Source: an uncultured Candidatus Saccharibacteria bacterium
GTDB lineage: Bacteria > Patescibacteriota > Minisyncoccia > Minisyncoccales > Staskawiczbacteraceae
Length of the DNA: 64,000 nt
Assembly (NCBI GenBank): GCA_964483475.1
Contig: CAZAAH010000003.1
Location: forward strand, 142-64,141
Direction of reading: 5' to 3'
A model generated the notes under the pieces. The model worked only from the letters and a program-made list of their open reading frames with translations. It was not told the DNA's origin and made no database searches. Numbering within the stretch: the stretch's first letter is position 1; the number at the start of each line of letters is the position of its first letter. Shown here piece by piece: positions 1,221-45,513 of the stretch. A program made the position numbers and the translations under genes.

Positions 1221-1916
1221 CTAGCCAATGACCTTACCATGCGCTTTTTTCCAAGCCTCTATTTTTTTGTGGTCACCCGAAAGCAATACCTTTGGAACTC
1301 GCCAACTTTTGACTTTTGACTTTTGACTTTTAACTTCAAAGATTTCCGGCCTCGTATACTGCGCGTATTCAATGAATCCCCCGCCCTTGGTTATCCTCTC
1401 TTTTAAAAGTTTTTCTTTGCCCAAGACCCCGGGCACCAACCTTGCAATCGTTTCAATGGCTACCATGGCCGGTAATTCGCCCCCCATTAAGTCATAATCC
1501 CCAATTGATAATTCTAAATCTGCAATATTTTTCGCCACCCTTTCGTCAACTCCCTCATAACGGCCGCAGATGAAAATAACCTGGTCTAACTTTGAAAGTT
1601 GATAGGCTATTTTTTGATTAAACTTCCGACCGCGCGGAGTAAATAATACCACCTTGGATTTAGGATTTAGGATTTTGGATTTAGGATTTTTTTTTAAAAA
1701 ATTGACTGCTTTATAAATTGGTTCAATCTTTAATACCATTCCCAACCCCCCGCCAAACGGCCGATCATCAACCGTTTTATGGCTATCGTTGGTCCAGCGG
1801 CGTAAGTTATGGACATTAATGTTAATCAACTTCTTTTTTTGGGCGCGCGCAATCAGACTCTCGTTGATATAAGAGTCAAAAATATTTGGAAAAATGGTTA
1901 CAATATCAAATCGCAT
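1221..1916 (-). CDS. trmD: tRNA (guanine37-N1)-methyltransferase TrmD
   Basis: N-terminus MRFDIVTIFPNIF... and overall TrmD (SPOUT) layout. Contains in-frame insertions encoded by DNA microsatellites (NPKSKILNPKSKVV and SQKSKVKS). Confidence 0.9.
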   Translation of the reverse strand: MRFDIVTIFPNIFDSYINESLIARAQKKKLININVHNLRRWTNDSHKTVDDRPFGGGLGMVLKIEPIYKAVNFLKKNPKSKILNPKSKVVLFTPRGRKFNQKIAYQLSKLDQVIFICGRYEGVDERVAKNIADLELSIGDYDLMGGELPAMVAIETIARLVPGVLGKEKLLKERITKGGGFIEYAQYTRPEIFEVKSQKSKVKSWRVPKVLLSGDHKKIEAWKKAHGKVIG

Positions 1917-1976: not shown

Positions 1977-2303
1977 TTACAAAGAAATATTTTCAATATC
2001 CTCTGACATTTCTTTTTTCTCCGGTCTCGGAGCTCTGCCACCCTCGGGCTCTTCAATTTTCAAGTTTACCCTGGCGTGGTTTTTCAATCCGATAATTCGG
2101 ACCAAGTTTCTTATTGCTTTGGCTGTTGATCCTTCCCTTCCAATGATTTGGCCCATATCAGCTGGGTTTACCGTCAATGAAAGCAAGACTCCCATTTCGT
2201 CAACTTTTCTCTCAACTTTGACGTCTTTTGGGTTGTCAACTAACTCCTTAACAACGTATTCAAGAAACTCTTTGTCATTATCTTTTGCCATTGTTCTACT
2301 CAA
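1977..2303 (-). CDS. khpA: KH-domain RNA-binding protein (YlqC/KhpA-like)
   Basis: KH motif IGREGSTAKAIRNLV. Conserved position between rpsP and trmD. Confidence 0.75.
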   Translation of the reverse strand: MSRTMAKDNDKEFLEYVVKELVDNPKDVKVERKVDEMGVLLSLTVNPADMGQIIGREGSTAKAIRNLVRIIGLKNHARVNLKIEEPEGGRAPRPEKKEMSEDIENISL

Positions 2304-2436
2304 GAACTTAAGAACATATGAACTGAAGAACTATCTGGTCCTTTCGTTCTTTCGTTTTTTGGTTCTTTCGTTAAACTAATTCTGCAGCTCGACCGTTCTG
2401 CAACTAAATTATAGTATACTTTTTTAAAACATTTTG

Positions 2437-2661
2437 TCAACTGTCAAAAAAAATTGGGGCGGCCAGATTTGCATCCAGCCACGCCCCTTGCCCCAAATCT
2501 GCTCTCGGTTTCCGTTTTTGGCTACCGGGTACCTCTCGCCCGGTACCGAGCGTACAAGACGGTCTCGAGTACCGCCTTTTCCCTCCCTTGAAGGAATTCG
2601 CCCGTTGGGTCCCTACGCAGACCCTAACCGCCAACACCCTCCGACGGAAACGACGTGCCAT
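2437..2661 (-). CDS. hypothetical very basic 74-aa protein (Arg/Lys-rich) in GC-rich island
   Basis: ATG preceded by a perfect SD (AAAAAGGAGAAAGC-ATG). Arg-richness may be partly a GC artefact, hence low confidence. Confidence 0.3.
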   Translation of the reverse strand: MARRFRRRVLAVRVCVGTQRANSFKGGKRRYSRPSCTLGTGREVPGSQKRKPRADLGQGAWLDANLAAPIFFDS

Positions 2662-2712
2662 GCTTTCTCCTTTTTGTTGCGAGAATTGGTGGTCATGGCG
2701 AACCGCCAATCT

Positions 2713-2835
2713 CTAACCTGAAGGCGCGCTCCGCGCGCACCCTTTATCCCTCAGAAACCACTGGACGAACATCAGCGCTACCGCCGCGGCGACGGTCAAT
2801 AGCGCACAAGCAATGGGTCTCCAAAGCCTTTGCAT
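2713..2835 (-). CDS. hypothetical 40-aa hydrophobic/TM peptide
   Basis: Own translation: MQRLWRPIACALLTVAAAVALMFVQWFLRDKGCARSAPSG. SD AAAGGAG 6 nt upstream. Not in the ORF track because it is under 60 aa. Confidence 0.45.
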   Translation of the reverse strand: MQRLWRPIACALLTVAAAVALMFVQWFLRDKGCARSAPSG

Positions 2836-2881: not shown

Positions 2882-2997
2882 CCCTTCTTTCAAATCATTA
2901 TACTATGAATTTATATTTTTCAATATTGAGTTTCAGTAAAATTCTGTGAATTAATTCTGAAATCGGTAAAATCTCACGTAATGATCTGAAAGAAAGG
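2882..2997. repeat. island inverted repeat D (116 bp, ends CCCTTCTTTCA...TGAAAGAAAGG)
   Basis: Read directly. Long imperfect hairpin with the conserved terminal 11-mers shared with the repeats at 3853, 4651 and 5263. Confidence 0.6.
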
Positions 2998-3104: not shown

Positions 3105-3365
3105 CTAACGGTTGAAGAGAACACAAAATGCAATCTGGGGAAGATCCCACTCTTCCACCATTGCCCGGACCTTGACGACATCTGGTGCCTTGAGAAAACT
3201 CAAGGCAATTTCGGCTCCCAACTCGCTGGGGACGCGCTCCGCCCCTTCCTCGAGCATGAAGTTCCTCGCGAGAAAGGGATCATCAGAATACTTGTGGAGC
3301 ACTCGACCCAGGTCCAGCAAATACTCCGCCGGAGAAACGCTTTCTACTGTAAAAAGTAAAAGCAT
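3105..3365 (-). CDS. hypothetical protein (86 aa) in island
   Basis: Start MLLLFTVESVSP... preceded by a G-rich SD (TGGGGGGACC-ATG). No recognisable domain. Confidence 0.35.
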   Translation of the reverse strand: MLLLFTVESVSPAEYLLDLGRVLHKYSDDPFLARNFMLEEGAERVPSELGAEIALSFLKAPDVVKVRAMVEEWDLPQIAFCVLFNR

Positions 3366-3535
3366 GGTCCCCCCAGTAAAAAAAGTGCTACCCCTAACTT
3401 CAGCCCACAACCTACAAGGTTATGAACTAGAGAAAAGGGAGGAACTTGAGCGTTGCTCAGGGTATCCTCCGTGTACTCTTTGAGAGAAATTTGAAATAGG
3501 TATTCTCCCTTAACCTATTAATCTCAAAAAAGAGG

Positions 3536-3808
3536 TTATTGACTTTGTTGCCTCTTCTTGATCTCTTCTAACCTTTGTCTTATTTTGATCTCTTCCAAGC
3601 CATTCAGACAATCCTCCTCGATGGTTTTCAGTAATTTTTCTCTTCTTTTATCCATATCGTCCCTACCAACCAATAGTAGCATTTCGAGAAAATTATATTT
3701 TTCGTTGTAACCCCGGTAATAACCAAGGTTCAGGCCGACGATGAATGCCACTAATGCAACCACTACCAGCAACAATCCAGTGTAGAAAGTGCTCACGGAA
3801 ATCTCCAT
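3536..3808 (-). CDS. hypothetical small membrane protein (N-terminal TM helix plus charged coiled-coil tail)
   Basis: Hydrophobic stretch LLLVVVALVAFIVGL followed by an EEIKIRQRLEEIKKRQ coiled coil. Confidence 0.45.
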   Translation of the reverse strand: MEISVSTFYTGLLLVVVALVAFIVGLNLGYYRGYNEKYNFLEMLLLVGRDDMDKRREKLLKTIEEDCLNGLEEIKIRQRLEEIKKRQQSQ

Positions 3809-3822
3809 TTGAGATCGAAAGT

Positions 3823-3899
3823 TCTGCGCCCAACCTGGCGGAAGCCAGATTTAAGACGCATACCCTTCTTTCAAACCATGAATTTAATTCATGAACTGA
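3823..3899. repeat. conserved 30-nt block plus island inverted repeat B (47 bp)
   Basis: TCTGCGCCCAACCTGGCGGAAGCCAGATTTAAGACGCATA abutting CCCTTCTTTCA...TGAAAGTAAGGGG. The 40-mer is near-identical to 5223-5262. Confidence 0.6.
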
Positions 3900-3980
3900 A
3901 AGTAAGGGGTGAAAGATTTCACATCCTGTGAAATCTTTCACCCATGTTTTGCTGCGTCATCGTGACGCAACCTCATTTTA

Positions 3981-4541
3981 TTACGGTAGCTCTGTGAGCC
4001 GAAGCTCTTTCTTGAGCTCCTCAGCAGTAGTATCATACCACTGCTGATTCCGCATAACCGCCCAACTGGTACCGTCCGTGGCACATTCAGTCGGTACGGT
4101 CGCGCAGCCGTATCCTAGTGCCTCATCCCGACTGCACGGAAAGTACAATTTGAACTTCCTTTCCCCATACGACTTTTGGGTCGCCTGGGAATAGGTGGGT
4201 ACCGGACGCCCATACCACCTAATCTCATGGTGGTACTCCACTCGCAGAGCCGTCCGTGGCCGGTTTAGATACTCGGCCAACGACCCACCGAACTTAATCG
4301 GCGGCTGGACTTCCAGAATCAGACGCTGAAGTTTTCTCAACGCCGTCCGGAGACCCTTCGGCCCCCGACAGGTCATGGACCCGCACATTGTGGGAAGACG
4401 GAGCGAAAAAACTTTTTTTCCATTCTCCTCCCCCACGAGGATCTCCGCTGGACGTTGCCAGCCCAGATCCGGCCGCTCCAACTGGGCGACCAGCCGTGCC
4501 TCGATCCGGTTACCACTTTCCGTCGTAAAAAAAGTACTCAT
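3981..4541 (-). CDS. hypothetical protein (186 aa), GC-rich, no recognised family
   Basis: Strong SD (GCAAAGGAGAAAC-ATG). Codon usage and GC differ from the flanking core genes. Confidence 0.55.
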   Translation of the reverse strand: MSTFFTTESGNRIEARLVAQLERPDLGWQRPAEILVGEENGKKVFSLRLPTMCGSMTCRGPKGLRTALRKLQRLILEVQPPIKFGGSLAEYLNRPRTALRVEYHHEIRWYGRPVPTYSQATQKSYGERKFKLYFPCSRDEALGYGCATVPTECATDGTSWAVMRNQQWYDTTAEELKKELRLTELP

Positions 4542-4650
4542 GGTTTCTCCTTTGCGAGAATGCGATCTACACCCTTATGTGCCATGACGCACATAAGCGG
4601 TTTTGGAAATGTTCAACCTCGTGCACAAGTAGATATTACGCTTGAGGCTT

Positions 4651-4742
4651 CCCTTCTTTCAAACCACCATCGTTCAGTTTTAACCTATCCCTTATTCGAG
4701 CGAATTAGAGATGTGTTTTCCTTGATGATTTGAAAGAAAGGG
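4651..4742. repeat. island inverted repeat C (92 bp)
   Basis: CCCTTCTTTCAAACC...TGATTTGAAAGAAAGG. Followed by the conserved junction GAGGAATTGGAACATCGCTGTTCC...TCCTCCGTGACTCTTCGG, which is also seen degenerate at 3425-3480. Confidence 0.6.
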
Positions 4743-4907
4743 AGGAATTGGAACATCGCTGTTCCGGTCTCCTCCGTGACTCTTCGGCTCGCTCAGGGCG
4801 AGCCCTTGACTTGCCGTTCCTGGCAAGCCCTACGAAATCCCGTCCTTTGGTAAGGCAGTCCGGGCATCTGCCCACACCTGTACTGACTGGCCCAGGGCGA
4901 GGCTTTT

Positions 4908-5192
4908 TCAACCGACCACAAACCCTCCTTCGCGAGGGGGGTTCGCGTGTGGCGCCGCCACACGATAAGCGCCTCCGCCCCGCCTTCCGAACGACCCAGA
5001 GTAAATCTCTGGGATAATACCTGCATCGACGAGTGCCTCGTCTGCTGTTTCGAATGTTTTTTCACCTTTGAAGCGAAACCGGAACGGACCGGGCTCTGAT
5101 GGGAAATGCCTCTTCCCGTCAGAATCGAGCCACTGATAACCGGCATGCTTCCCAGCGAGAAAAACGACGGACCCCGTCAGCAATGTAAACAT
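4908..5192 (-). CDS. hypothetical small secreted protein (94 aa, N-terminal signal-like MFTLLTGSVVFLAGKHAG)
   Basis: Start chosen at the internal ATG with SD GAAAGGGGAATAAG-ATG. The track ORF 4908..5234 begins upstream inside the repeat. Confidence 0.5.
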   Translation of the reverse strand: MFTLLTGSVVFLAGKHAGYQWLDSDGKRHFPSEPGPFRFRFKGEKTFETADEALVDAGIIPEIYSGSFGRRGGGAYRVAAPHANPPREGGFVVG

Positions 5193-5222
5193 CTTATTCC
5201 CCTTTCGAGAGAATAGTGAAGT

Positions 5223-5337
5223 CTCTGCGCCCAACCTGGCGAAAGCCAGATTTAAGACGCATACCCTTCTTTCAGCTAGCCAACCGTGGCAAGTAGCCAG
5301 GCTCCCAGATAGGACTTACTGACGAGCTGAAAGAAAG
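5223..5337. repeat. conserved 40-nt block plus island inverted repeat A (75 bp)
   Basis: TCTGCGCCCAACCTGGCGAAAGCCAGATTTAAGACGCATA followed by CCCTTCTTTCAGCTAGCC...GAGCTGAAAGAAAGG. Confidence 0.6.
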
Positions 5338-5456
5338 GTAGGAAACCAAGATTCAATCATCCTTTTGGTCGTGTTTCCTTAGGTTTTTCAATGTTCATTT
5401 TACGCCTTAATTATAGCACTATCAAGCAAGTGTGTCAAGTGTTTAGGTAATCAATC

Positions 5457-5483
5457 AAAAAACGCCGATAATCGGCGTTTTTT
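5457..5483 (-). terminator. rho-independent terminator downstream of rpsP
   Basis: AAAAAACGCCGATAATCGGCGTTTTTT hairpin plus T-tract immediately 3' of the rpsP stop. Confidence 0.65.
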
Positions 5484-5495
5484 GGTACATTGTTT

Positions 5496-5927
5496 CTATT
5501 TTTTGGGTTCCTCTTTTGGCTCTTCTTTGGGCTCTTCGTTTTTTGGAGTTTCTGGCGAAGGCGCTGGAGTTTCCGTTACAGTTTCGGACTTAGTTTCAGG
5601 AACTGGTGGGGCCGAGGTAGGAACCGGAGCGGCCGCAGCCGCGGCTGCGGCCGCTTTTTTACTCTTTTTTGCAACCGGGATTTTCTTGCCCTCAATAATT
5701 TTTTCTGAAATCAACAAATTGTGAACTGTGGCTGACGGTTGGGCTCCTTTAGACATCCAATGCAAAATCCTTTCCTTTTTTAAAGATTTCCTCTTGGTGA
5801 GTGGATCAAGGTATCCCAAAATTTCAACCGCCCTTCCCCCTTTGGAAGACCTCCGCTTATCAATGACCACCACCCTAAAAAATGGCTGGTTCTTTTTCCC
5901 TTGTCTTGTTAAACGAATCGTTAGCAT
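5496..5927 (-). CDS. rpsP: 30S ribosomal protein S16 with Ala/Pro/Glu/Lys-rich C-terminal extension
   Basis: MLTIRLTRQGKKNQPFFRVVVIDKR. The C-terminus has an Ala9 run and PKEE repeats. Confidence 0.9.
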   Translation of the reverse strand: MLTIRLTRQGKKNQPFFRVVVIDKRRSSKGGRAVEILGYLDPLTKRKSLKKERILHWMSKGAQPSATVHNLLISEKIIEGKKIPVAKKSKKAAAAAAAAAPVPTSAPPVPETKSETVTETPAPSPETPKNEEPKEEPKEEPKK

Positions 5928-5946: not shown

Positions 5947-6639
5947 TTAATTCCATGATTTCTTAATAAGACCTTCTTTGGCTGCTTCCTCCTCTGCCTC
6001 CTGTTTTGAATAGCCTTCGCCCTCGGCCACCAAGTCCTGCCCTAAAAATACTCCCACTTTGAACTTCTTTTGATGGTCAGGCCCCCACTCTTCAACAACC
6101 TTGTACATGGGAGTCACCCCCACCTTTTCCTGGGCCTGCTCTTGAAAGTAAGACTTTGCGTCTTTGTATAATTTGTTTTCTATGATGTCGGGCAGTTTTT
6201 TCAACAGGTATTTGGCGATGAGGGCGTCAACGGTTTCATACCCTTGGTCGAGGTACAGTGCCCCGATGAAAGCTTCAAAGGTGTTGGCCAAAATGTACTG
6301 GCGCGCCTTGCCCAACTCTTTCATTTCGCCCCGTGATAGGAGCAAAAAATCATTAAAGCCCATTTCCTCGGCCATGGAGGTAAGCATTTTGGCATTGACC
6401 AGGGCTGCCCTCCAGTTGGTCAGCTCTCCCTCGGCTTTGTCTGGATATGTTTTGTAAAGGTATTCGGTGATGGACAATTCCAAAACTGCATCTCCCAAAA
6501 ATTCCAATCGTTCATTATGCTCCATGCCGGATTTTGGGTTTTCATTGAGGTATGATCGATGGACAAATGCCTGAGTTAAAAGCTCTTTACTTTTAAATTT
6601 CAATCCCAACTTTTTTTCTAATAAGGAAAAATCCTTCAT
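5947..6639 (-). CDS. rnc: ribonuclease III
   Basis: RNase III signature ERLEFLGDAVL plus a C-terminal dsRBD. Confidence 0.9.
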   Translation of the reverse strand: MKDFSLLEKKLGLKFKSKELLTQAFVHRSYLNENPKSGMEHNERLEFLGDAVLELSITEYLYKTYPDKAEGELTNWRAALVNAKMLTSMAEEMGFNDFLLLSRGEMKELGKARQYILANTFEAFIGALYLDQGYETVDALIAKYLLKKLPDIIENKLYKDAKSYFQEQAQEKVGVTPMYKVVEEWGPDHQKKFKVGVFLGQDLVAEGEGYSKQEAEEEAAKEGLIKKSWN

Positions 6640-6704
6640 TCTGTTACGAAAGAACAGAAAAACTTAAGAACGAAAGAACCATGTCATGGTAGTTCTTTAG
6701 TCCT

Positions 6705-7142
6705 TTAGTTCTTTGGTTCTTCAGTTTTTGGTTCTAATTGCTTATACACTGTCCCCAAAACGCCATTTACAAATTTACCAGAACTCTGGCCAGAAAATGA
6801 CTTTGCCAGTTCAATGGCCTCGTTGATGGCAACCTTTGGCGGAACTTCTTCTTTATTGCTGTACAAAAGTTCAAAAAGCCCTATTCGTAAAACATTTCTG
6901 TCAACCAGCGGGATTTGGGCAAGCGGCCACTCGGGAGCTGCCTTTTCAATAATGTTGTCAATTTCTTTTTGGTGTTTTGCCACCCCGTCAGCCAGCTCTT
7001 TTACAAATGTTAAATCTTCCAAGCCAGGGCCGAAATCCTTGATATTCCTATCAATAATTTGGTCTAAATTTTTTTGACCATAAAAATCCCATTCATACAA
7101 ACTTTGCATTACTATAGATCGTGATAGGTGCCGACTAGCCAT
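6705..7142 (-). CDS. nusB: transcription antitermination factor NusB
   Basis: NusB-like helical protein; recognised by overall sequence resemblance, no single diagnostic motif. Confidence 0.8.
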
Positions 7143-7178
7143 GTTAATGAATTATGAATTAAGAATTACGAATTATGA

Positions 7179-7463
7179 TTATTTTTTTGAAAGTTCTTCC
7201 ATACTCATTGGCTTTTCTGTTTTTTGCCCTTTTTCTTGCTTTGCCATTTCTTTTTCTCTCAACTTTTTCTCTTTTTTAGTGAGCTTGCCCAAAACATTAA
7301 TAACCTCTCTCCCCTTATAATATCCGCAGTGCTGGCACACGGTATGAGGCCTAACCGGCTTTTTGCATTTTTGGCAGGTCGTCAAAGCAGCGGGCCTGAT
7401 GTAAATATGCATCCTCCGTTGCCCTACGCTTGACCTGGTGTGTTTATGTCTTGGAACAGCCAT
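7179..7463 (-). CDS. rpmF: 50S ribosomal protein L32 with Lys/Glu-rich C-terminal extension
   Basis: MAVPRHKHTRSSVGQRRMH...C..C...HTVCQHCGYYKGREV. Confidence 0.8.
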   Translation of the reverse strand: MAVPRHKHTRSSVGQRRMHIYIRPAALTTCQKCKKPVRPHTVCQHCGYYKGREVINVLGKLTKKEKKLREKEMAKQEKGQKTEKPMSMEELSKK

Positions 7464-7516
7464 GCTTTTGGAATTATGATTTAAGAATTATGAATTAAGA
7501 TTATGAAGATATCCTA

Positions 7517-16916: not shown

Positions 16917-17136
16917 GTACTCTGCGGACGTGCCAGTACCGATGAATCTTTTTGGAATTTTTGCTCAATCGCTATCCAGCCCAACACATAAAAACTTTCC
17001 TTCATCCCACTTTTTCCCAATCATTTCCATGAAATTTCGCTCAGCCATTACACACGCTCCCTTCTGGTAAAACTCTGTTCAATTGACAAGGATCTCTCCA
17101 CAACAACGATTACTCAACTTACCAAAAAAACTCTTA

Positions 17137-17186
17137 GAAATCAACTTTCTTATTGTAAAAAGAAATCAACTTTCTTATTGTAAAAA
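17137..17186. repeat. tandem 25-bp direct repeat x2 (AGAAATCAACTTTCTTATTGTAAAA)
   Basis: Read directly, in the pyrF upstream region. Confidence 0.6.
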
Positions 17187-17230
17187 ATAGTTAATCATAC
17201 TCATCCCACTCTATTGCTACCTTATTACAC

Positions 17231-17262
17231 CCACTGGACAATTCGGACGAATTGTCCAGTGG
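17231..17262. promoter_or_regulatory. palindromic operator-like site CCACTGGACAATTCG-GAC-GAATTGTCCAGTGG
   Basis: Perfect 14-bp inverted repeat. Near-identical second copy at 17600-17627, on the other side of the ArsR-family gene. Confidence 0.55.
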
Positions 17263-17276
17263 TTTCGCAAAAAAAT

Positions 17277-17543: not shown

Positions 17544-17599
17544 AATTTTATAAAATTTTTAAAAATAATTTACTAAACAATCCCCCCCCTCTCCCCACC

Positions 17600-17627
17600 A
17601 CTGGACAATTCGCGCGAATTGTCCGGT
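17600..17627. promoter_or_regulatory. second palindromic operator-like site ACTGGACAATTCGCGCGAATTGTCCGGT, preceded by a poly-C tract
   Basis: Read directly, upstream of the ArsR-family gene. Confidence 0.55.
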
Positions 17628-17684
17628 AGGTTAAAATGAAAACAAGTAAAATATTTTTGTTTTCTATTTTAACTTTTTACAATT

Positions 17685-38889: not shown

Positions 38890-39594
38890 TTAATGTCTAA
38901 TTGGTATCTTTATAAAAAATTTACTTCCCTGGTTTTCTTTTGATTCAAACCAAATTTTCCCTTTATGATCCTCCACAATACTTTTGGCGATAAAAAGGCC
39001 TAATCCAGAACCTACTGTTTGCGTTTTTACGGCGTTATCTCCCCTAAAGAACTGGCTAAATAAATTTTTCTTTTGATTTTCTGGAATTCCTATGCCCGAA
39101 TCCTCAACCTTAACCTCCAGATTTTTTTTATCAACCCTAAGAGAAACATTTACCCTTCCACCGTCTGGGGTGTATTTAATGGCGTTGTCTATAATATTCT
39201 GAATTGCTAAATAAATTTTTTCCTTATCCAGCATCACTTTTGGTATTTCCTGGTTGGATTTTACAAAATCAATTTGAATTTTTTTATTTATAATGTCTCC
39301 TTTTTCAAAGTTTATAATGGATTCTATTAAACCTTCAACATCAACCAGTGTTAAATTAATATCTTTTTGGTTTTTTTGATTTTGGGCCATGTGAAGCAAA
39401 TCATCAACCAAACAAATTAATGCCTCGTCTCTTTGCAATATTTTTTCAATAATGTCTTTTTGCTCTTTTGAAATTTGGCCAAAATCCCCTTCCAAAAGCA
39501 TTTGCAATGATAACTTCATGGTGGAAAGCGGTTTTTTTAGCTGGTGAGCCGCCAACGAAAAAAAACTGATTTTTTCTTCCTTGTTTAATTTCAT
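38890..39594 (-). CDS. sensor histidine kinase (cytoplasmic HisKA plus HATPase_c)
   Basis: H-box AAHQLKKPLSTM, then N, G1 and G2 boxes (DSGIGI, GSGLGL). Confidence 0.8.
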   Translation of the reverse strand: MKLNKEEKISFFSLAAHQLKKPLSTMKLSLQMLLEGDFGQISKEQKDIIEKILQRDEALICLVDDLLHMAQNQKNQKDINLTLVDVEGLIESIINFEKGDIINKKIQIDFVKSNQEIPKVMLDKEKIYLAIQNIIDNAIKYTPDGGRVNVSLRVDKKNLEVKVEDSGIGIPENQKKNLFSQFFRGDNAVKTQTVGSGLGLFIAKSIVEDHKGKIWFESKENQGSKFFIKIPIRH

Positions 39595-41219
39595 ATTTCA
39601 AATTTTTTCTTAATGATACCGTTTTTCTGGGCATCGATAATTGAAGACGTGTGAATCAACGAATAAGACCCGTCACTGTTTTTCTTTTCTATTTTAACAT
39701 AATACTTTCCTCTTGGGACCAAGCAATAATATCTTCCGTATTTGTCGGCAATCTTATGGCTGATTTCCACATGAGAAGTTGCTCCAACAATTCTTATAAC
39801 AGCGAAGGAAAGCGGAACACCGGTTGCTTTATCAAATACATAACCAGCCGGCCTTGGTTTCAGCCCCAAAGTCCTCAACAATAATAATACTAAGTATACT
39901 ATAACGATAATGGTATTGTAAGGATGGGGAGCCAAAAAGAAAGCTATTAGAGAAACAAGAAAACCAACAATGAAAGAAGCATCGTAAATCTTTCCCAACA
40001 AAAGATCCCAGCGGGAGTAAAACTTCATAAAAGTTTTATTTTTTTTGGCAAATTCATTCCAATCAAAATGAATAGGATCAAGGGGAATATTTTTAGCTAT
40101 AGTCTCTCCCCTTTCTTTAATTTCTATTTGTTCTCCAAAATAAAGGCTACCATAAAAACCGTCTTCTATTTTACCGCTAATTTTTTTTGAAGGGAATTCA
40201 TAATTTGTTTTTTTGGCTGAAATAAGGTAGGACCCGGGCGCCACCAAAAATCCATATCGGCCATCAATGTCCGTGATCGCCGAAGCAACCTCCTTGCCTC
40301 CCAAACTGCTCAACGTGACATACGCCGGATCCAAGGGTTGTTTGGTAACAGAGTCATACACGATTCCCCATGGCAAGTTTCTTTTTCTGATACCAAGAGC
40401 AGTCAATATACTGCCGAGCAATCTCGTTAAGCTTAGGGTTATGTCATAGAAAGAGGGTAGATAAGTAGCAACGCTTGAAGATGTTGCAATTACAGTAACC
40501 GTCGCTCCCACCGTTGATACTGTCTTAGTTGCTATTGCCCCTTGAGGAGTGTTAATTACTTTTTTTGTTTCTTCAATTGCTATACCAGCCAATTGAACCG
40601 AATTCGCCACGACTTCTGAAACACCGTTGCTCAAAATTTCAACAGCCTTGGTAACTATTTGATATGCATTGCCTCCGATTTCCCTAGTAATTCCTAAAAT
40701 ACCTTCATATCCTTGACTTACTATTTGAGAAAAATTACTGAACACCGTGGTTATTGGATTTGATGGTGGAGCTGGGGGCGGTGGTGGTGTCTCGGGTGGC
40801 GGAGGAGGTGGTATTGGCGGAGGAGGCGGTGGAATTTGAATAGCAGAAACTACAAATGGCAAGGAGCTTGATGTCCCCCCTCCAGGAGAAGGATTGGTTA
40901 CGCCAATAGAATATGTCCCTTCATTCTTAAAATCAAAAGAAGTAAGTGAAGCCGAAATCTGGGTTTTTGAAATAAAAGTTGTCCCTCTTGGCGAACCATT
41001 GAAATTTACCACAGAATCTGAAATAAAGTTGTCTCCCTTGACCGTCAACGACAATCCCTGATCTCCAACCGTGCCGCTTGACGGGGTTATCGCCGTGATG
41101 ACCGGCAAGGGATTGTAGACCGTGAAGGTAAAGCTGTTTGAGTCGCTCGACTGGGCCGAGGCTACTGTGGAAAAAAGACAGAAAAATAATGTGAGGAAAA
41201 TAAAAAATATTTTTTTCAT
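39591..41219 (-). CDS. surface protein: signal peptide, IPT/TIG-like domain, poly-Pro linker, C-terminal multi-TM region with carboxypeptidase-regulatory-like repeats
   Basis: Start set at MKKIFFIFLTLFFCLFSTVASA. IPPPPPPIPPPPPPETPPPPPAPP. Repeats GRYGFLVAPGSYLISAKK and GRYYCLVPRGKYYVKIEKK. Confidence 0.55.
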   Translation of the reverse strand: MKKIFFIFLTLFFCLFSTVASAQSSDSNSFTFTVYNPLPVITAITPSSGTVGDQGLSLTVKGDNFISDSVVNFNGSPRGTTFISKTQISASLTSFDFKNEGTYSIGVTNPSPGGGTSSSLPFVVSAIQIPPPPPPIPPPPPPETPPPPPAPPSNPITTVFSNFSQIVSQGYEGILGITREIGGNAYQIVTKAVEILSNGVSEVVANSVQLAGIAIEETKKVINTPQGAIATKTVSTVGATVTVIATSSSVATYLPSFYDITLSLTRLLGSILTALGIRKRNLPWGIVYDSVTKQPLDPAYVTLSSLGGKEVASAITDIDGRYGFLVAPGSYLISAKKTNYEFPSKKISGKIEDGFYGSLYFGEQIEIKERGETIAKNIPLDPIHFDWNEFAKKNKTFMKFYSRWDLLLGKIYDASFIVGFLVSLIAFFLAPHPYNTIIVIVYLVLLLLRTLGLKPRPAGYVFDKATGVPLSFAVIRIVGATSHVEISHKIADKYGRYYCLVPRGKYYVKIEKKNSDGSYSLIHTSSIIDAQKNGIIKKKFEI

Positions 41220-41247
41220 AGTTTCAGGCTTTGCTCTTTTTACCATA

Positions 41248-44200
41248 TCAGTTACCGCTGACTTTGACATCAAACAAGCCAGCCTTTTTCAAGTCGGCGG
41301 CCAAAATCAAAGTCGTTAATTGGGTTGAGGAAACGTAATTTGTTTTGTAGAGCAGATTATTGAAGTAAATGACCGACCGGCTGGTAAAGTTGGAGCCATT
41401 AACCGTCAAAAGCGTATCAGGGCTGCCAATGGGAACTTGTGGTGGAGATATATTTGATATTATAGGCGGAGGCAGCTTAACGTTTTTCATAGCACAATAT
41501 GAAATTCTGTCCGCACTAACAACAATTGAAGAGCATCCGCTGATTGTATTTTGCCAACCCAAAGGGACGATTTCACTCACTGAATAAGTTCCAGGAATGA
41601 CGTTTTGAGTATTGGTACCTGAACCGTTTTGGGTAGTTATAGAAAAATCGTTGTAGCCAGTTCCGGTGGCCTTGAAGTTAAAAGTGTAATCTCCACCAAC
41701 AGCTATTTTATTAACTACAATTGTACCAGTTTTAACGGTCGTCACAGAACAATTTGAAGTTTTGTTTGAAGAAACAGTAACCGATGAGCATGTGTCGCTC
41801 GTCTTTTGCCAGCCAGAAGGGACAATTTCACTTGCCGAATATGTTCCAGGAAGGACACTTTGCGTATTTGAGCCCGATCCATTTTTAGTAGTAATAGAAA
41901 AATCGTTGTAGCCAGTTCCGGTGGCTTTGAAGTTAAAAGTGTAGTCTCCGCCGACGGATATTTGGGTAACAGTGATGTTGCCAGTTTTTTGTGACTGTGG
42001 TGGCGGTGGTGGCGGACTTGATCCTCCTCCCCCTCCGCCCCCTCCTCCTCCACCACCGCCGCAGTTAGACGGCGACCTAAATAACCAACCGCTATTGCCA
42101 GATACATTTGAAGAGTTGCACCCCGCATACCATGCGGCCCCTCCCGAAGCCGCCGAATCTTTCAGGGAAAGAAAATCAGATGAAACGGTTCCCGAAGATT
42201 TTGATAGCGTGGCGGCCGTACTGCTGGAAGAAGAATTAATAGTGATAATATTGCCCGATGTCCCGATGGCCGTGAAAGCCCCGGTAAAGGTTTGGGTGCT
42301 AGAGCTGGTAAAGGTCACGGTTTTGGGATTGTTGATGGTAAAGTTGCTAAAGGTGTTGCTCCCCTGGATGATGATGGCCCCAGACCCCCCGCCAGTAATT
42401 GATAGGTCATTATATGTTTTACCGCCCCCGCTAAATGTTTTGCTCGATGAAGACGTGTCGGTGATTTGAATGGTTGAAGTACCGGCGTTAAAAGTTCCCG
42501 AATTGGAAAAAATGGTGCCGGTACCAGAAAGCGTGAGGGTCCTGGAGTTAGCATCTAGGGTTCCAGCGGTGATGGTTAGATTGCTATTGACGGTGGTGTT
42601 GGCTGATAAGGTATAGGTTTCGCTGGCGTTGTTGAGGGTCAGGTTATTGTAGGTAACATTGGCAATGGTGGTGTTTCCCGATCCGTTGTCGCCCGTGTAA
42701 GAGACAGTACCCGTTGAGGCGGTAAGGGTTCCTTTTGAATTAATAACAAGAGGGGTGCCAGTAGTTCCCGATAAGGTTATTGTATAGCTTGATCCGCTGA
42801 ACGTCTGGGTGTTAACGCCCGATGAGGGTCCTACGGTTAATACATTGGTTACTGTCGTATTACCTCCAAGGGTATAGGTTCTGCCACCGGTTTGAGTGGT
42901 GGCGTTTCCAGCCTGTAAGTTATAATAGGTAGTCCCTAACATAGTAACCGTAGCACCGTCACCCGTGTAATTTACCGTTGAAGTGGATGAAGTAAATGTT
43001 CCATTGTTTATGAAAGGGGTGCCTACACCCGATAACGTGAGTGTTTGTGAACCCGCCGAGAAGTTACCATTGGTAATAGTGAGACTCGTGCCAATGGTAG
43101 TTGCATCCTGCAATGTCCAGCCTCCCCCGACACCATTGAAAGTCAGGTTATTGAATGAGCTACCTCCTGTGGTGATAGTTTTTCCTGTGGTTGTGGCGTT
43201 GAAAGTAACGGTGTTTCCCCCCGCGGTAAAGGTTCCCGAGTTAGACCAGTTTGACGAGGCAGTAATATTATAATTAGAACTGGAAACATCCAGTGTGGTG
43301 CCAGTTCCGATGGTTACGTTTCCCGTTATTGCAATGTTTGTGCCCAGGGTCATAACCGCTGTTCCGCTTAGCGTCAGATTGCCGCCGATGGTTGTCAAAA
43401 CATTTCCCGAAGTTGAAGCAGAGCTGGACATGGTAAAGTCGTTGGTGGTGGTGATACTGGTCATGGTCTTGGCTCCGCTCCCGCTCAAAGTCAAATTAGA
43501 ATAGGTATGAAGAGTGCCGCCGTTTGGATCTTTTACGGTCAGCGCTCCGTTGGCCGTGTAGTTGACGGTGTTGGTGGCCGTGGAAGCTGAAAAAGTTCCG
43601 GCTCCCGAGAAAGGAGTGGTTGAACCAAGGCTCAATGTTGAACCGTTGCCTTGGGCCCAGTTACCAGTAAGAGTCAGAGTGCCGGTCACGGTGACCGTGC
43701 CACCAGTATAGTTGTTGGTGGTGGTTCCGCTGGAAATTGCCAGGGCTCCCCCAAAGGTGATGCCGCCAGTCCCAGCCCCAGCTAAATTTCCAACAAGGGT
43801 GTTTGAGCCGTTGTTTCCGAGGTTGGCAAGATTGGAACTTGATTGGGTAAGACCAGTGCCTATGGAAACCGCGGGATTTTGGCCCGACATATCAAAGGTG
43901 CCGCCGGAGTTTACGGTTACCGCTCCGGTAAATGTTTTGGTTCCTGTTGCCGAAGTAGCCGTGTTAATAGTCCCTGAAATAGAGGTAGTGCCCGTCGTCG
44001 TGAAAGCAAATCCCGCCATGCTTAAGGTGCCGGCCGTAATTACAAGATTATTACTCACCGTTGTGGCGTCTTGAGGGGTATAAGTTCCGCTGCTTCCGTT
44101 AATAGTTAGATTATAAAAAGATGAACCGCCCGAGGTTATTTTAGCGCTAGCAGAAGTTGAGGCAAGGGTGACCGTGGTGGTTGCTGCGGTAAATGTTCCT

Positions 44201-45513
44201 GCGTTTTTGTAGTTTCCGCCAACGCTAATAGCTGAAGATCCTCCGGGAGCATAGGTTTGGCTGGCGGCAATATACAGATTTTTTCCCGATGCCAGCGTTG
44301 TCGTGGTGCTGTTGCTGGCAGAATAAATAGAGGTGATGCCGCTGTCGGCGTTGTTGTCTGACGTATCCATGTTTGCTCCCGTAAATGATCCCCCGTTGTC
44401 GCTCCTGACCACCAAATCATTCTGGTAAATATCAACACTAGTCATATTGGATCCCGTGCCCGTGGTTACCGTAGCCCCAACCTCCGTGTTGCCCTGAAGG
44501 TAAATGGTTAAGACATCTCCGGCGTTAATGGTTAAACCGCTGATGCTGTAGGTTCCACCAGCGCCGGTTGTAGTGCTTCCGACAGCCGCTGCCCCGTTAA
44601 TAGAAACCTTTACGGTTTTTCCAGAACCCATGGTGGTGACGCCCTCGTCAGTGTAAGCAGTTCCAGAAACAGAAACGGTTGTTGATGAAGCTTTAAACGT
44701 TGCTATGGCTCCCTCCCAACTGTTAGTGGGACCACCACTGTCAGTAACGGTAGCGCCCGTTGAATACGTGCCCGTGGCAGAAACGATTCTGTCGAGAAAG
44801 GCCGCAAAAATAGATGTAGAATAACTGTTTTCAATGGTAAAGCTATTAGTGGGAGAGCTAAACGTATCGGTGGTAGTTCCCAATCCTCCAATAAGCAATT
44901 CATTGGCCTGGGTGGTGGCGGCGGTAGTTCCTGTTGAAGGAGAGGTGCTATCACCAGAATTGGTTGCCGTCTTATCAAGGGAAGAAGAGGTAGCAACGCC
45001 GCTGTACTCGGCAACGATGACACTGAGGCCGGCATCGGCATCGGTTGTAAAGTTTCCGGTGCTTGATTGGGAAGCGGCGTTCTCCTTATAAAAAATTGAA
45101 AGTCTCCTGATGCTCATAACTCCGGTGCCGCCACCATTGATAGTAGTGGCTTGAGTCCAACCGGTAGGCGCCGTAATATTGTCGGTGCCAGCTCCCGAAG
45201 CATCGTCCTCGGCACTAGCTACCGCTATAAGAATGTTTCCTGCAGTGGTAGATGACGTCCATGTTACCGAAACAGTCGCATTTGCCACTGATGACTGGTT
45301 CTTTGCTGTTTGAACCAGCGAAATCGCGCCATGGGCAACACGAGGAGGAGGGACAAACAAAAACAAGCTGGCAAAAACAGCTATGATAAGGAAAAAAGAA
45401 AGCAGCGCCCTCAAAGAAGAATACTTTCTGAAGGAACTTTTCCTGTTTTGAACCTTTACCGAGCAACTTTCCGATTCTATAAATCTAATTTTTATGACTT
45501 GTTTTTTTCGCAT
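41248..45513 (-). CDS. giant (1421 aa) Thr/Ser/Gly-rich surface protein, beta-helix-like repeats, Gly13-Pro7 linker, two tandem about-85-aa domains and a C-terminal IPT/TIG-like domain
   Basis: N-terminal anchor, long T/S/G/N-rich repeats (TLSGTGT.. pattern), GGGGGGGGGGGGGSSPPPPPPQ. C-terminal domain similar to the N-terminal domain of the neighbouring 560-aa protein. Confidence 0.65.
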   Translation of the reverse strand: MRKKQVIKIRFIESESCSVKVQNRKSSFRKYSSLRALLSFFLIIAVFASLFLFVPPPRVAHGAISLVQTAKNQSSVANATVSVTWTSSTTAGNILIAVASAEDDASGAGTDNITAPTGWTQATTINGGGTGVMSIRRLSIFYKENAASQSSTGNFTTDADAGLSVIVAEYSGVATSSSLDKTATNSGDSTSPSTGTTAATTQANELLIGGLGTTTDTFSSPTNSFTIENSYSTSIFAAFLDRIVSATGTYSTGATVTDSGGPTNSWEGAIATFKASSTTVSVSGTAYTDEGVTTMGSGKTVKVSINGAAAVGSTTTGAGGTYSISGLTINAGDVLTIYLQGNTEVGATVTTGTGSNMTSVDIYQNDLVVRSDNGGSFTGANMDTSDNNADSGITSIYSASNSTTTTLASGKNLYIAASQTYAPGGSSAISVGGNYKNAGTFTAATTTVTLASTSASAKITSGGSSFYNLTINGSSGTYTPQDATTVSNNLVITAGTLSMAGFAFTTTGTTSISGTINTATSATGTKTFTGAVTVNSGGTFDMSGQNPAVSIGTGLTQSSSNLANLGNNGSNTLVGNLAGAGTGGITFGGALAISSGTTTNNYTGGTVTVTGTLTLTGNWAQGNGSTLSLGSTTPFSGAGTFSASTATNTVNYTANGALTVKDPNGGTLHTYSNLTLSGSGAKTMTSITTTNDFTMSSSASTSGNVLTTIGGNLTLSGTAVMTLGTNIAITGNVTIGTGTTLDVSSSNYNITASSNWSNSGTFTAGGNTVTFNATTTGKTITTGGSSFNNLTFNGVGGGWTLQDATTIGTSLTITNGNFSAGSQTLTLSGVGTPFINNGTFTSSTSTVNYTGDGATVTMLGTTYYNLQAGNATTQTGGRTYTLGGNTTVTNVLTVGPSSGVNTQTFSGSSYTITLSGTTGTPLVINSKGTLTASTGTVSYTGDNGSGNTTIANVTYNNLTLNNASETYTLSANTTVNSNLTITAGTLDANSRTLTLSGTGTIFSNSGTFNAGTSTIQITDTSSSSKTFSGGGKTYNDLSITGGGSGAIIIQGSNTFSNFTINNPKTVTFTSSSTQTFTGAFTAIGTSGNIITINSSSSSTAATLSKSSGTVSSDFLSLKDSAASGGAAWYAGCNSSNVSGNSGWLFRSPSNCGGGGGGGGGGGGGSSPPPPPPQSQKTGNITVTQISVGGDYTFNFKATGTGYNDFSITTKNGSGSNTQSVLPGTYSASEIVPSGWQKTSDTCSSVTVSSNKTSNCSVTTVKTGTIVVNKIAVGGDYTFNFKATGTGYNDFSITTQNGSGTNTQNVIPGTYSVSEIVPLGWQNTISGCSSIVVSADRISYCAMKNVKLPPPIISNISPPQVPIGSPDTLLTVNGSNFTSRSVIYFNNLLYKTNYVSSTQLTTLILAADLKKAGLFDVKVSGN
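41540..42000. repeat. tandem duplication of about 230 bp inside the giant gene (two copies near-identical at the DNA level)
   Basis: GTAGCCAGTTCCGGTGGC[C/T]TTGAAGTTAAAAGTGTA[A/G]TCTCC... appears twice, about 240 bp apart. Confidence 0.6.

Follow-up and report, generated by a model that had tools for sequence, protein, structure and literature searches.

Two unrelated small genes in the window (the whole 64-kb stretch of DNA analysed here) are each preceded by a near-identical block of 40 nt that adjoins a hairpin. What does this block represent: a promoter, a leader of the transcript or a trace of recombination? A preliminary description of the sequence had proposed either a shared promoter/5'-UTR module or a recombination footprint. 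We find that the block occupies one position in a tripartite hairpin junction, and that such junctions recur in previously undescribed, hairpin-punctuated arrays of orphan genes at the rpsP-khpA site of a group of Patescibacteria (CPR); in the literature that we searched, such arrays are nowhere described. The reading that we favour, and to which we give an even chance, is that the 40-mer serves in RNA as a punctuation and leader module and was duplicated inside the array by recombination, with a processing mechanism that we infer.

Occurrence and extent of the repeat

A pattern search recovers two copies of the 40-mer in the 64 kb, at positions 3823-3862 and 5224-5263 (+ strand coordinates), which differ by a single mismatch (G/A). 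The same pattern has no match in 100 dinucleotide shuffles, and none is expected by chance. The search bears out the two near-identical copies reported earlier, with adjusted coordinates: the end of the first copy, given as 3852, should be 3862, and the second, given as 5223-5262, was off by one. The full repeat is 51 nt long rather than 40 (3823-3873 and 5224-5274, 98% identity), because the similarity reaches into the hairpin next to it, whose left arm on the + strand is CCCTTCTTTCA; each copy is indeed fused to a hairpin arm, as had been noted. On the sense (minus) strand the 40-mer reads UAUGCGUCUUAAAUCUGGCUUYCGCCAGGUUGGGCGCAGA. Its placement was also described correctly: on the minus strand, each copy has a hairpin on one side and on the other the start of its own small ORF, 4908-5192 (94 aa) in one case and 3536-3808 (90 aa) in the other.

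An exact search for the 40-mer core, GCGTCTTAAATCTGGCNNNNGCCAGGTTGG, in genome and metagenome contig collections returned no matches, and neither a degenerate 40-mer pattern nor the pattern of the long junction hairpin (P2, see below) matched in viral contigs. Using nhmmer with a three-sequence profile, we detected only three copies of the 40-mer type, two in the window and one in locus L005, in a search set that excluded loci L036-L039. The preliminary description had held that absence of the 40-mer from other carriers of the island would count against its proposal, and this is largely what we observe: eight other syntenic islands lack the 40-mer according to nhmmer, so the island is not defined by it. 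In L036, outside the nhmmer search set, inspection revealed no 40-mer-like block among the sequences downstream of the hairpins. The 40-mer is one lineage-specific variant of a module slot.

Organization of the island

Both copies belong to a 3-kb island located between rpsP (S16) and khpA-trmD, with its small genes on the minus strand. From head to tail, the island and its borders comprise the following features; J2 to J5 are junctions, and P1, P2 and P3 are their parts.

5455-5481: terminator of rpsP
5410..5438, minus strand: array promoter, TTGACA-N17-TATAAT with a TG extension, 12/12, just downstream of the rpsP terminator
5339..5383, minus strand: J5 P1 hairpin, AGGAAAC...GUUUCCU, abutting P2
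5264..5338, minus strand: J5 P2 hairpin, class A, 75 nt, with a 19-bp basal helix and a conserved asymmetric internal loop GUAAG..CC.UCUGGG
5224..5263, minus strand: 40-mer copy 2, putative P3 leader hairpin, loop UUUC, -21 kcal/mol, z -5.2
4908..5192, minus strand: cassette ORF of 94 aa, hydrophobic N-terminus, 57% GC, Shine-Dalgarno sequence AAGGGG
4742..4775, minus strand: J4 P1 hairpin, GGAGGAG...UUCCUCC
4651..4741, minus strand: J4 P2 hairpin, 91 nt, not followed by a 40-mer, 84% identical to L012 8599-8693
3981..4541, minus strand: cassette ORF of 186 aa (ORF186), 56% GC, Shine-Dalgarno sequence AAAGGAG
3907..3943, minus strand: J3 P1 hairpin, perfect 17-bp stem, terminator-like together with the U-rich P2 arm (3943-3907)
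3863..3907, minus strand: J3 P2 hairpin, short class E, 45 nt, about 19 bp, similar to L021 1347-1397
3823..3862, minus strand: 40-mer copy 1, putative P3 leader hairpin, loop UUCC, -21 kcal/mol, z -4.9
3536..3808, minus strand: cassette ORF of 90 aa (ORF90), TM segment and coiled-coil tail, 40% GC
3391..3470, minus strand: degenerate junction J2, P1 (GGAGGAUACC...UUCCUCC) and eroded P2 (CUUUUCUCUAG...CUGAAGUUAGGGG)
3105..3365, minus strand: cassette ORF of 86 aa, 52% GC
2882..2997, minus strand: class D P2 hairpin of 116 nt, final hairpin of the array
2437..2835, minus strand: island tail with two ORFs and a terminator-like hairpin at 2459-2482
2713-2835, minus strand: tail ORF of 40 aa, TM
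2437-2661, minus strand: tail ORF of 74 aa, Arg-rich, in 56% GC DNA
2413..2440, minus strand: khpA-trmD promoter at the downstream end of the island, 11/12, conserved in L002, L003 and L013

The class A P2 at 5264..5338 contains 25 pairs, four of them with compensatory changes across seven homologs, and the P1 of the same junction is homologous to the first P1 of L002 (window 5324-5391 versus L002 4595-4662, 78%). The class D P2 is 75-81% identical to hairpins in L022, L031, L018, L030 and L002. An alternative start of the 90-aa ORF is a GTG at 3796 with GGAG upstream. No homolog of the 94-aa ORF was found among 5.8 billion proteins, and ORF186 has, besides its source record, two remote homologs, both outside arrays. 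Scans of the cassette proteins with PHROGs and PADLOC yielded nothing but a weak spanin-like match for ORF90, which is probably compositional.

A scan for the sigma-70 consensus (-35/-10 hexamers with a 16-18-nt spacer) places promoters at the ends of the island only, and no site overlaps 3823-3873 or 5224-5274. The 12/12 and 11/12 matches at the island ends indicate that the sigma-70 consensus applies in this organism; a promoter block similar to 5410..5438 also precedes the arrays in L002, L003, L005 and L006. The idea that the 40-mer is or contains a promoter, from which the two small genes would be transcribed separately, draws on its location upstream of two start codons and on a weak TTAAAT hexamer within it. 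We rejected it on the basis of the scan, which finds nothing in or around the 40-mer, unlike at the island ends, and we regard it as extremely improbable: the hexamer most like a -35 box, TTGAAA in the P2 arm, lies a mere 14 nt away from TTAAAT, and the block is a G+C-rich hairpin whose sense-strand G.U pairs speak for RNA rather than for a signal in duplex DNA. The promoter part of the initial proposal is therefore unsupported.

Secondary structure of the repeat

The sense strand of the 40-mer forms a 15-bp stem-loop consisting of 7 bp, a 2-nt bulge and 8 bp. Its predicted folding energy is -21 kcal/mol (z = -4.9 for copy 1 and -5.2 for copy 2), compared with -12.2 for the antisense strand. 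The stem includes three G.U pairs, and the sole difference between the copies falls in the loop. The small hairpin CTGGC-NNNN-GCCAG pointed out previously is real, but it is the tip of this longer stem-loop and not a separate structure. The fold does not sequester the ribosome-binding site. The bases that follow the 40-mer are GAGACUUC and GAACUUUC, and the terminator scan lists no intrinsic terminator there. In Rfam, only tRNAs pass the gathering thresholds, and the matches at E <= 10 are at chance level, with none on the 40-mer.

The single homolog of the 40-mer outside the window is a diverged sequence in L005, which occupies the same position after a class A P2. It retains 15/15 pairs despite seven substitutions at paired positions, one of them a C-G to U-A double change and the rest proceeding via G.U; as MAFFT aligns the L005 bulge wrongly, this comparison of pairs uses a fold computed for each sequence on its own. 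Support for the proposed 5'-UTR module comes from the strong sense-strand fold, located in front of two unrelated ORFs between the intercistronic hairpin and the ribosome-binding site, and from the diverged homolog in the same position.

Hairpin junctions

A junction stands before each small gene of the island and comprises, in order, a P1 hairpin of variable sequence, directly followed by the long P2 hairpin (CCUUUCUUUCA...UGAAAGAAGGG), and then P3, which in the two junctions discussed above is the 40-mer. P1 abuts P2 in 44 of 53 junctions. P2 is a hairpin of 42-134 nt whose 11-bp base (CCUUUCUUUCA / UGAAAGAAGGG) hardly varies and forms part of a helix of about 20 bp; as the loci were found by searching for the P2 arms, the near-invariance of this base is partly a matter of ascertainment. 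P3 begins 0-6 nt past P2, and after it come the Shine-Dalgarno sequence and the start codon. From junction to junction, P3 sequences are very diverse. Over the 55 nt downstream of 50 junctions, the sense strand folds only slightly better (p = 0.06, mean z = -1.2), and we therefore do not claim that a P3 hairpin is universal.

The strand preference of P2 is pronounced. Among 26 P2 hairpins from nine loci, oriented independently by the housekeeping genes, the sense strand folds better in 25 (mean -34.1 versus -25.3 kcal/mol, Wilcoxon p = 9e-8). G.U pairs account for 110 of 898 pairs on the sense strand and for 47 of 799 on the antisense strand. Across 39 distinct P2 hairpins, the basal 19 bp comprise 614 Watson-Crick, 90 G.U and 13 C.A pairs, with covariation at positions 12-19, and the P2 alignments A1 and A3 display 19-20-bp basal helices with compensatory pairs. 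G.U pairs are thus frequent on the sense strand only, where their counterparts on the other strand are C.A mismatches, and selection acts on the structure in the transcript. The base of P2 and the internal loop of class A, GUAAG..UCUGGG, are conserved in sequence beyond what pairing demands.

Within the 64-kb window, the P2 arms have seven matches within the 3 kb of the island; two further one-mismatch matches outside it lack a partner arm, with 3.1 expected by chance. We discarded six of eleven genome matches to the P2 pattern (L001, L004, L007, L008, L009 and L011) as chance matches in coding DNA of other phyla, and likewise several metagenome matches.

Related arrays in Patescibacteria

The same junctions occur at the same insertion site in at least nine related Patescibacteria contigs, with different genes in each. 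The gene order L32-nusB-rnc-rpsP-[array]-khpA-trmD is shared by the window, L002, L003, L016, L022, L031, L033 and L036. The cassette genes are small, co-oriented and mostly without known relatives, and in eight of nine loci they are GC-richer than their flanks. P2 classes recur at 75-90% identity beside unrelated genes in many contigs. Some hairpins also turn up away from this site, as in L012, where one follows rplL.

Several comparisons reveal exchange of parts at the junctions. A cassette encoding an HD-domain protein keeps its own P3 in L016, L022 and L036, its P2 and P1 neighbours differ in each, and the homology begins inside the P2 3' arm. A segment between two P2 5' arms present in L002 was apparently lost from the window. 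Near-identical duplicates of modules are found inside the L013 and L036 arrays.

Discussion

According to the reading of the 40-mer as an RNA punctuation and leader module, the array is putatively transcribed as one polycistronic RNA from the single strong promoter at its head, and P2 is a predicted double-stranded-RNA signal for processing or stability. The most likely enzyme would be RNase III, whose gene, rnc, lies two genes upstream of the array (5947-6639, Ribonuclease_3 and dsrm domains). The continuous helix of about 20 bp or more that RNase III calls for is present in P2: classes A and B have 19-20 bp, and the hairpins of 42-45 nt have about 19 bp. Cleavage would place P3 close to the 5' end newly formed on the downstream message, which P3 would protect while leaving the ribosome-binding site open. 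The two copies of the 40-mer may result from a recent duplication or gene conversion within the array that had the conserved P2 3' arm as its anchor, and this would account for a 51-base identity flanked by unrelated DNA. The recombination footprint of the preliminary description is in this sense plausible but unproven: the identity starts exactly at the conserved hairpin arm, and similar duplications are seen in L013 and L036. RNase III, an enzyme of little sequence specificity, does not explain the near-invariant 11-bp base of P2, nor does a function at the RNA level alone explain the entry of foreign GC-rich genes into the array. The position of the array near rnc may be a coincidence.

An alternative is that P2 acts in DNA as an integron-like joint, folding as sense-strand single-stranded DNA so that a recombinase encoded elsewhere captures and shuffles cassettes at rpsP|khpA; the 51-nt identity would then be a crossover footprint at the P2 3' arm, with the same leader carried before two cassettes. 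The anatomy is cassette-like, with small co-oriented genes, mostly without relatives, behind one strong promoter, and the compositional contrast of these genes with their flanks, the variable content at a site shared by related genomes, the conserved base and variable length of the hairpins, the strand-specific fold and the homology breakpoints at conserved arms (the HD cassette; the window versus L002) all agree with it. The attC version of this alternative was rejected on consensus, strand and the absence of an integrase. The P2 arms, CCTTTCTTTCA / TGAAAGAAGGG followed by nnTCATTA / GTGATnn, lack the R-box consensus of attC, and a search for the cores RYYYAAC / GTTRRRY at the hairpin base recovered no conserved AAC...GTT on either strand. 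The strand that folds is the sense strand, as the 25 of 26 hairpins and the ratio of basal G.U to C.A pairs (90:13) indicate, whereas attC uses the bottom strand; about 12% of G.T pairs would weaken hairpins of DNA and are normal in RNA. Pfam detects no integrase, transposase or other recombinase among the window ORFs of at least 150 aa, and in the flanks of the L036 array only L32, NusB, RNase III and S16 upstream and KhpA and TrmD downstream; by inspection, the other syntenic loci show housekeeping genes only. The inner parts of P2 and the P1 hairpins shuffle independently of both neighbouring ORFs, while attC travels with its cassette. Overall, we consider an integron-like joint rather unlikely.

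That the hairpins are selfish palindromic repeats of the MITE, REP or BOX-like kind, multiplied in a dispensable and highly transcribed stretch, with the 40-mer as part of one duplicated composite copy without cellular function, is in our estimate distinctly unlikely. P2 does resemble a small element with terminal inverted repeats and interchangeable inner modules, and its recurrence beside unrelated genes, its near-identical copies within single arrays and its occurrence at sites such as that after rplL conform to such an origin. Many dispersed copies would be expected, yet in the 64-kb window the P2 arms are confined to the island. All copies share the orientation of the genes and a strong sense-strand G.U bias, neither of which is expected of DNA parasites; inspection of the flanks of the inverted arms revealed no target-site duplications, the window ORFs of at least 150 aa include no transposase, and viral contigs gave no matches. 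We assign a very low probability to the view that P2 and P3 form a cis-regulatory operator co-regulating all cassettes by binding KhpA, S16, another RNA-binding factor or a ligand. The sequence conservation of the P2 base and the class A loop suggests sequence-specific recognition, and the array always adjoins khpA, the gene of an RNA-binding KH protein. Against an operator stand the lack of any Rfam family or riboswitch match even at E <= 10, the accessibility of the ribosome-binding site beside the 40-mer, the diversity of P3 between junctions and the mere three copies of the 40-mer type in the sequence searched.

A comparable system is that of the early genes of phage T7, where RNase III hairpins of about two helical turns punctuate a polycistronic RNA made from strong promoters and cleavage leaves stem-loops at the message ends, stabilising them. 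The hairpins of the array would punctuate it in a similar manner. The T7 sites differ in being few, in serving a fixed gene set and in having characteristic internal loops. Alternative cassettes between the same conserved pair of housekeeping genes are known from the minimal mobile elements of Neisseria, which are probably exchanged by homologous recombination after DNA uptake; those elements have no internal hairpin punctuation and do not form multi-cassette arrays. The arrays are also comparable to Correia, ERIC/BIME and pneumococcal BOX elements, which are short, bounded by inverted repeats, sometimes modular (BOX A-B(n)-C), sit in co-transcribed intergenic regions and fold in mRNA (PMC3049150). 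They offer a precedent for processing, since RNase III cleaves the hairpins of transcribed Correia elements, while ERIC and BIME repeats alter operon mRNA by changing transcript stability or attenuation (PMC3049150). Those elements are scattered over hundreds of loci, often in both orientations, whereas the hairpins described here cluster in one array at a fixed site, keep to the sense orientation throughout and are each paired with a cassette ORF.

Integron arrays and CALINs (attC clusters without an integrase) share with our arrays one-directional, small, mostly orphan and compositionally foreign ORFs behind a strong promoter, imperfect hairpin separators with conserved bases and variable length, and content that differs among relatives at the same site. 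Here, by contrast, the RYYYAAC/GTTRRRY core and IntI are both missing, the sense strand folds and is rich in G.U pairs, and the hairpins precede the ORFs, shuffle independently and form tripartite joints (P1-P2-P3). It is conceivable, albeit unlikely, that the rpsP|khpA arrays constitute an integrase-independent cassette platform in which P1-P2-P3 is both a signal for RNA processing and expression and a joint in DNA. If so, P1-P2-P3 would be the place of capture and reshuffling for orphan genes as well as for hairpin cores and for leaders like the 40-mer, and the arrays would be a functional analogue of integrons with different sites and another enzyme or mechanism.

The 40-mer itself is a small piece, yet it offers a clean case of module-level duplication inside such an array. 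The genomes of CPR/Patescibacteria are tiny, and this clade nevertheless keeps a hypervariable array of orphan genes in a core ribosomal-gene neighbourhood. If the hairpins are processing signals, they would represent a new family of RNA motifs and a way of expressing genes acquired recently. Should they serve as recombination joints too, cassette capture would have evolved outside integrons, and the arrays would provide a handle on how episymbiotic bacteria renew their small secreted and membrane proteins.

A duplicated block in an island of small ORFs

The preliminary description reported a 40-nt block repeated ahead of two different small genes. A pattern search with TCTGCGCCCAACCTGGCGRAAGCCAGATTTAAGACGCATA confirmed the duplication, with exactly two matches in the window and none in 100 dinucleotide shuffles; the sites are 3823-3862 and 5224-5263, slightly displaced from the coordinates first assigned. 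No third window site appears even when 3 mismatches are allowed. According to the repeat finder, the identity spans 51 nt with one mismatch (3823-3873 and 5224-5274), because the block continues into CCCTTCTTTCA, the plus-strand left arm of the adjoining hairpin. The 40-mer core was not found in the one-genome-per-species GTDB contigs, JGI metagenomes or viral contigs.

All genes around the island are on the minus strand, and the ∼3 kb following S16 have no Pfam family match.

Genes flanking the island, from Pfam matches
7179-7463, minus strand, L32
6705-7142, minus strand, NusB
5947-6639, minus strand, RNase III with dsRBD
5496-5927, minus strand, S16
1977-2303, minus strand, KhpA-type KH protein
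1221-1916, minus strand, TrmD

The GC content is 49.5% in the island vs 39.5% in the window. On the sense strand, the island begins with the rpsP terminator and a perfect TTGACA-17-TATAAT promoter (5438-5410). Five hairpin junctions follow, interleaved with small ORFs (94, 186, 90, 86 and 40 aa); then come a GC-rich tail with an Arg-rich ORF of 74 aa and the khpA promoter (2440-2413). A scan of all window ORFs of at least 150 aa revealed housekeeping genes alone; integrases, transposases and other recombinases were absent.

The tail (2437-2712, minus strand) has 56% GC, a good Shine-Dalgarno (SD) sequence for the 74-aa ORF and a terminator-like hairpin at 2459-2482; no P2 hairpin (described below) separates this ORF from the preceding 40-aa TM ORF. 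The tail, which has no Rfam match, may be what remains of a cassette, or else a structured RNA. The S16 protein (5496-5927, minus strand) is extended at its C-terminus by ∼60 aa in which Ala, Pro, Glu and Lys are abundant, and its Pfam domain covers only residues 8-65; similar tails occur in the related contigs L002 and L003. Short tandem repeats take up the leader regions of khpA, rnc and rpmF.

Tandem repeats of 7-8 nt in gene leaders
Window: 2302-2372, 6646-6734, 7149-7182 / 7471-7504
L002: 5640-5690, 6060-6130
L003: 1470-1560

In the window the repeated unit is AAGAACnn / GTTCTTTC; relatives have CTAAACC or CCAACAC instead. Position is kept and unit sequence varies between genomes; blocks 2336-2371 and 6646-6681 are 86% reverse-complementary. 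Elsewhere in the window, a second GC-rich stretch (39591-45513, minus strand, ∼50% GC) encodes two probable surface proteins: one of 1421 aa, which weakly matches the SpaA-type prealbumin fold, and one of 560 aa, which has a CarboxypepD_reg domain. One intergenic region contains a perfect 25-nt tandem duplication (17136-17185) and two palindromic blocks of 35 nt, ACCACTGGACAATTCG.CGAATTGTCCAGTGGT, 333 nt apart (17229-17263 / 17597-17631).

Anatomy of the hairpin junctions

Each junction is built from up to three hairpins. P1 is variable in sequence, and its 3' end abuts the next element in 44 of 53 junctions, counted over all loci. P2 measures 42-134 nt and has the base CCUUUCUUUCA / UGAAAGAAGGG, its first 19-20 bp forming a continuous helix. 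Many junctions have a further hairpin, P3, which begins 0-6 nt past P2 and precedes the SD sequence and start codon.

In all junctions, the P1 3' arm and P2 5' arm form a single ∼18-nt polypyrimidine tract, UCUCCCUCCUUUCUUUCA (for example, window 4731-4750, minus strand, and L015 1135-1160), which contains or nearly contains the anti-SD sequence CCUCCUUUCU; the P2 3' arm GAAAGAAGG is one base away from the extended SD GAAAGGAGG. P1 and P2 would be coaxially stacked, with upstream and downstream RNA leaving at one point. P2 hairpins can be grouped into classes by inner sequence. Class A (window 5264-5338, minus strand; L002, L005, L006, L017, L021) shares an asymmetric internal loop of ∼18 nt, with GUAAG..CC.UCUGGG conserved on the 5' side only; such conservation of unpaired sequence may reflect a specific binding site or a tertiary contact. 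The inner part of class D consists of tandem ∼8-nt units, AATTCAnA / TTAGAAAT, whose number differs among genomes (L022 3331-3450, L030 1360-1475, L031 2274-2385, window 2882-2997). In a class B hairpin of L010 (45-132; labelled Methanosarcinales, CPR-like), oriented by its inner sequence and P1, the third stem base pair is a C.A mismatch where other copies have the usual U.G, so this pair is not strictly maintained.

The 40-mer is the P3 of two junctions, J5 (5224-5263) and J3 (3823-3862). The sense RNA forms a stem of 7 bp followed by 8 bp, with a 2-nt bulge between them and a UUYC loop at the end (-21 kcal/mol; z = -4.9 and -5.2 for the two copies). The plus strand reaches -12.2 kcal/mol at best, because three G.U pairs turn into C.A mismatches. 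The copies differ by a single base, in the loop. The copies follow different P2 hairpins (class A of 75 nt vs a short 45-nt class) and precede unrelated ORFs; therefore, the shared stretch is a module and not a piece of a larger duplication. Its only sequence homolog, L005 3871-3910, also follows a class A P2, as in J5 (165 nt aligned, 74.5%), and keeps 15 of 15 pairs despite seven substitutions at paired positions: one C-G to U-A double change and the others via G.U. These results establish the structure and strand of the 40-mer, its 5'-leader position and its membership in a modular junction.

Strand-specific folding

We compared the strands of 26 distinct P2 hairpins from nine loci, oriented by the housekeeping genes. 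The sense fold is the more stable in 25 of them (mean -34.1 vs -25.3 kcal/mol antisense; Wilcoxon p = 9e-8), and G.U pairs make up 110 of 898 pairs in sense vs 47 of 799 in antisense. The basal 19 bp of 39 distinct P2 hairpins comprise 614 Watson-Crick pairs, 90 G.U and just 13 C.A. Positions 12-19 of this helix show several pair types, and the class A and class B alignments contain compensatory changes. This pattern is the signature of selection for pairing in the transcript; selection for pairing within a single DNA strand is the less likely explanation.

Related arrays and movement of modules

In contrast to the 40-mer core, the P2 pattern recovers a family. The genome collection yielded five true loci, labelled Patescibacteria or Saccharibacteria apart from one contig that is probably mis-binned, and metagenomes added ∼20 loci with 2-5 hairpins per few kb. 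Arrays occupy the same site between rpsP and khpA-trmD, with L32-nusB-rnc upstream and no recombinase nearby, in the window, L002, L003, L016, L022, L031, L033 and L036; the khpA side is visible in L013, L030 and L035. GC content is higher in the array than in its flanks at 8 of 9 loci. Recurrent P2 classes are common to different contigs at 75-90% identity, and no window ORF has a match in any of the other loci. ORF94 has no homologs among 5.8 billion proteins; ORF186 retrieves its own record and two remote relatives, both outside arrays. Nine of ten other cassette proteins lack a Pfam family. The array thus combines a conserved site with variable content. The remote ORF186 homologs sit in AT-rich contigs without P2 hairpins (L038, L039), one of them near a HicB-like antitoxin; relatives of array cassettes are also found as ordinary genes outside arrays.

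An HD-domain cassette occurs at different positions in three arrays (L016, L022, L036). Between L016 and L022, nucleotide homology starts within the P2 3' arm and spans P3 and the ORF. The upstream P2 has an inner part of another class in each array, the downstream P1/P2 likewise differs, and one P1 lies downstream of the cassette in L016 and upstream in L022. A 50%-identical homolog is an ordinary gene beside ftsH (L037 4236-4859). Some modules are found twice in one array, nearly identical but with unrelated flanks: L013 has a pair of 84-nt P2 hairpins, L036 has one pair of 59-nt P2 hairpins and another of 16-nt P3 stubs, and the window has the 51-nt block. The window also lacks a stretch that L002 has, from the 5' arm of the first hairpin to that of the second. 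The homology limits, the module copies and the L002 difference indicate that the conserved arms behave as breakpoints. On the sequence evidence, the most probable origin of the 40-mer pair is a recent duplication or gene conversion, with the P2 3' arm as its anchor.

Discussion

The single strong promoter and the absence of internal promoter-like sites suggest that the array is read as a polycistronic RNA. RNase III, which needs a helix of ∼20 bp and is encoded two genes upstream, would cut the intercistronic P2; P3 would then lie close to the 5' end that processing gives the downstream message, and would stabilise this message without blocking the ribosome-binding site. RNase III is known to act on transcribed Correia repeats, and effects on operon mRNA are known for ERIC and BIME repeats (PMC3049150). 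We regard RNA processing with P3 as a 5' stabiliser as roughly evenly balanced between right and wrong. It does not account for foreign-gene entry or for the near-invariant 11-bp base of P2, a near-invariance to which ascertainment contributes.

The chief alternative is an integron-like joint acting at the DNA level for a putative recombinase. The cassette anatomy and the breakpoints speak for it, but the attC consensus is missing, the fold is on the wrong strand and rich in G.U, the P2 cores shuffle independently, and no recombinase is nearby. The layout does resemble integron and CALIN arrays, yet without an attC core or IntI the system lacks what defines them. Like Correia, ERIC and BOX repeats, the hairpins are transcribed palindromes; unlike these, they are not dispersed across the window. 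Less likely than either RNA processing or a recombination joint is that the hairpins are selfish palindromic repeats, a protein-binding operator or a promoter.

We found no Rfam family match and, in a literature search, no description of such arrays. We rate the system as belonging with hairpin-punctuated cassette arrays or transcribed palindromic repeats, and consider a distinct cassette-capture platform unlikely. Taken alone, the 40-mer is a leader hairpin of modest note, duplicated and specific to one lineage; what makes it interesting is what it brings to light.
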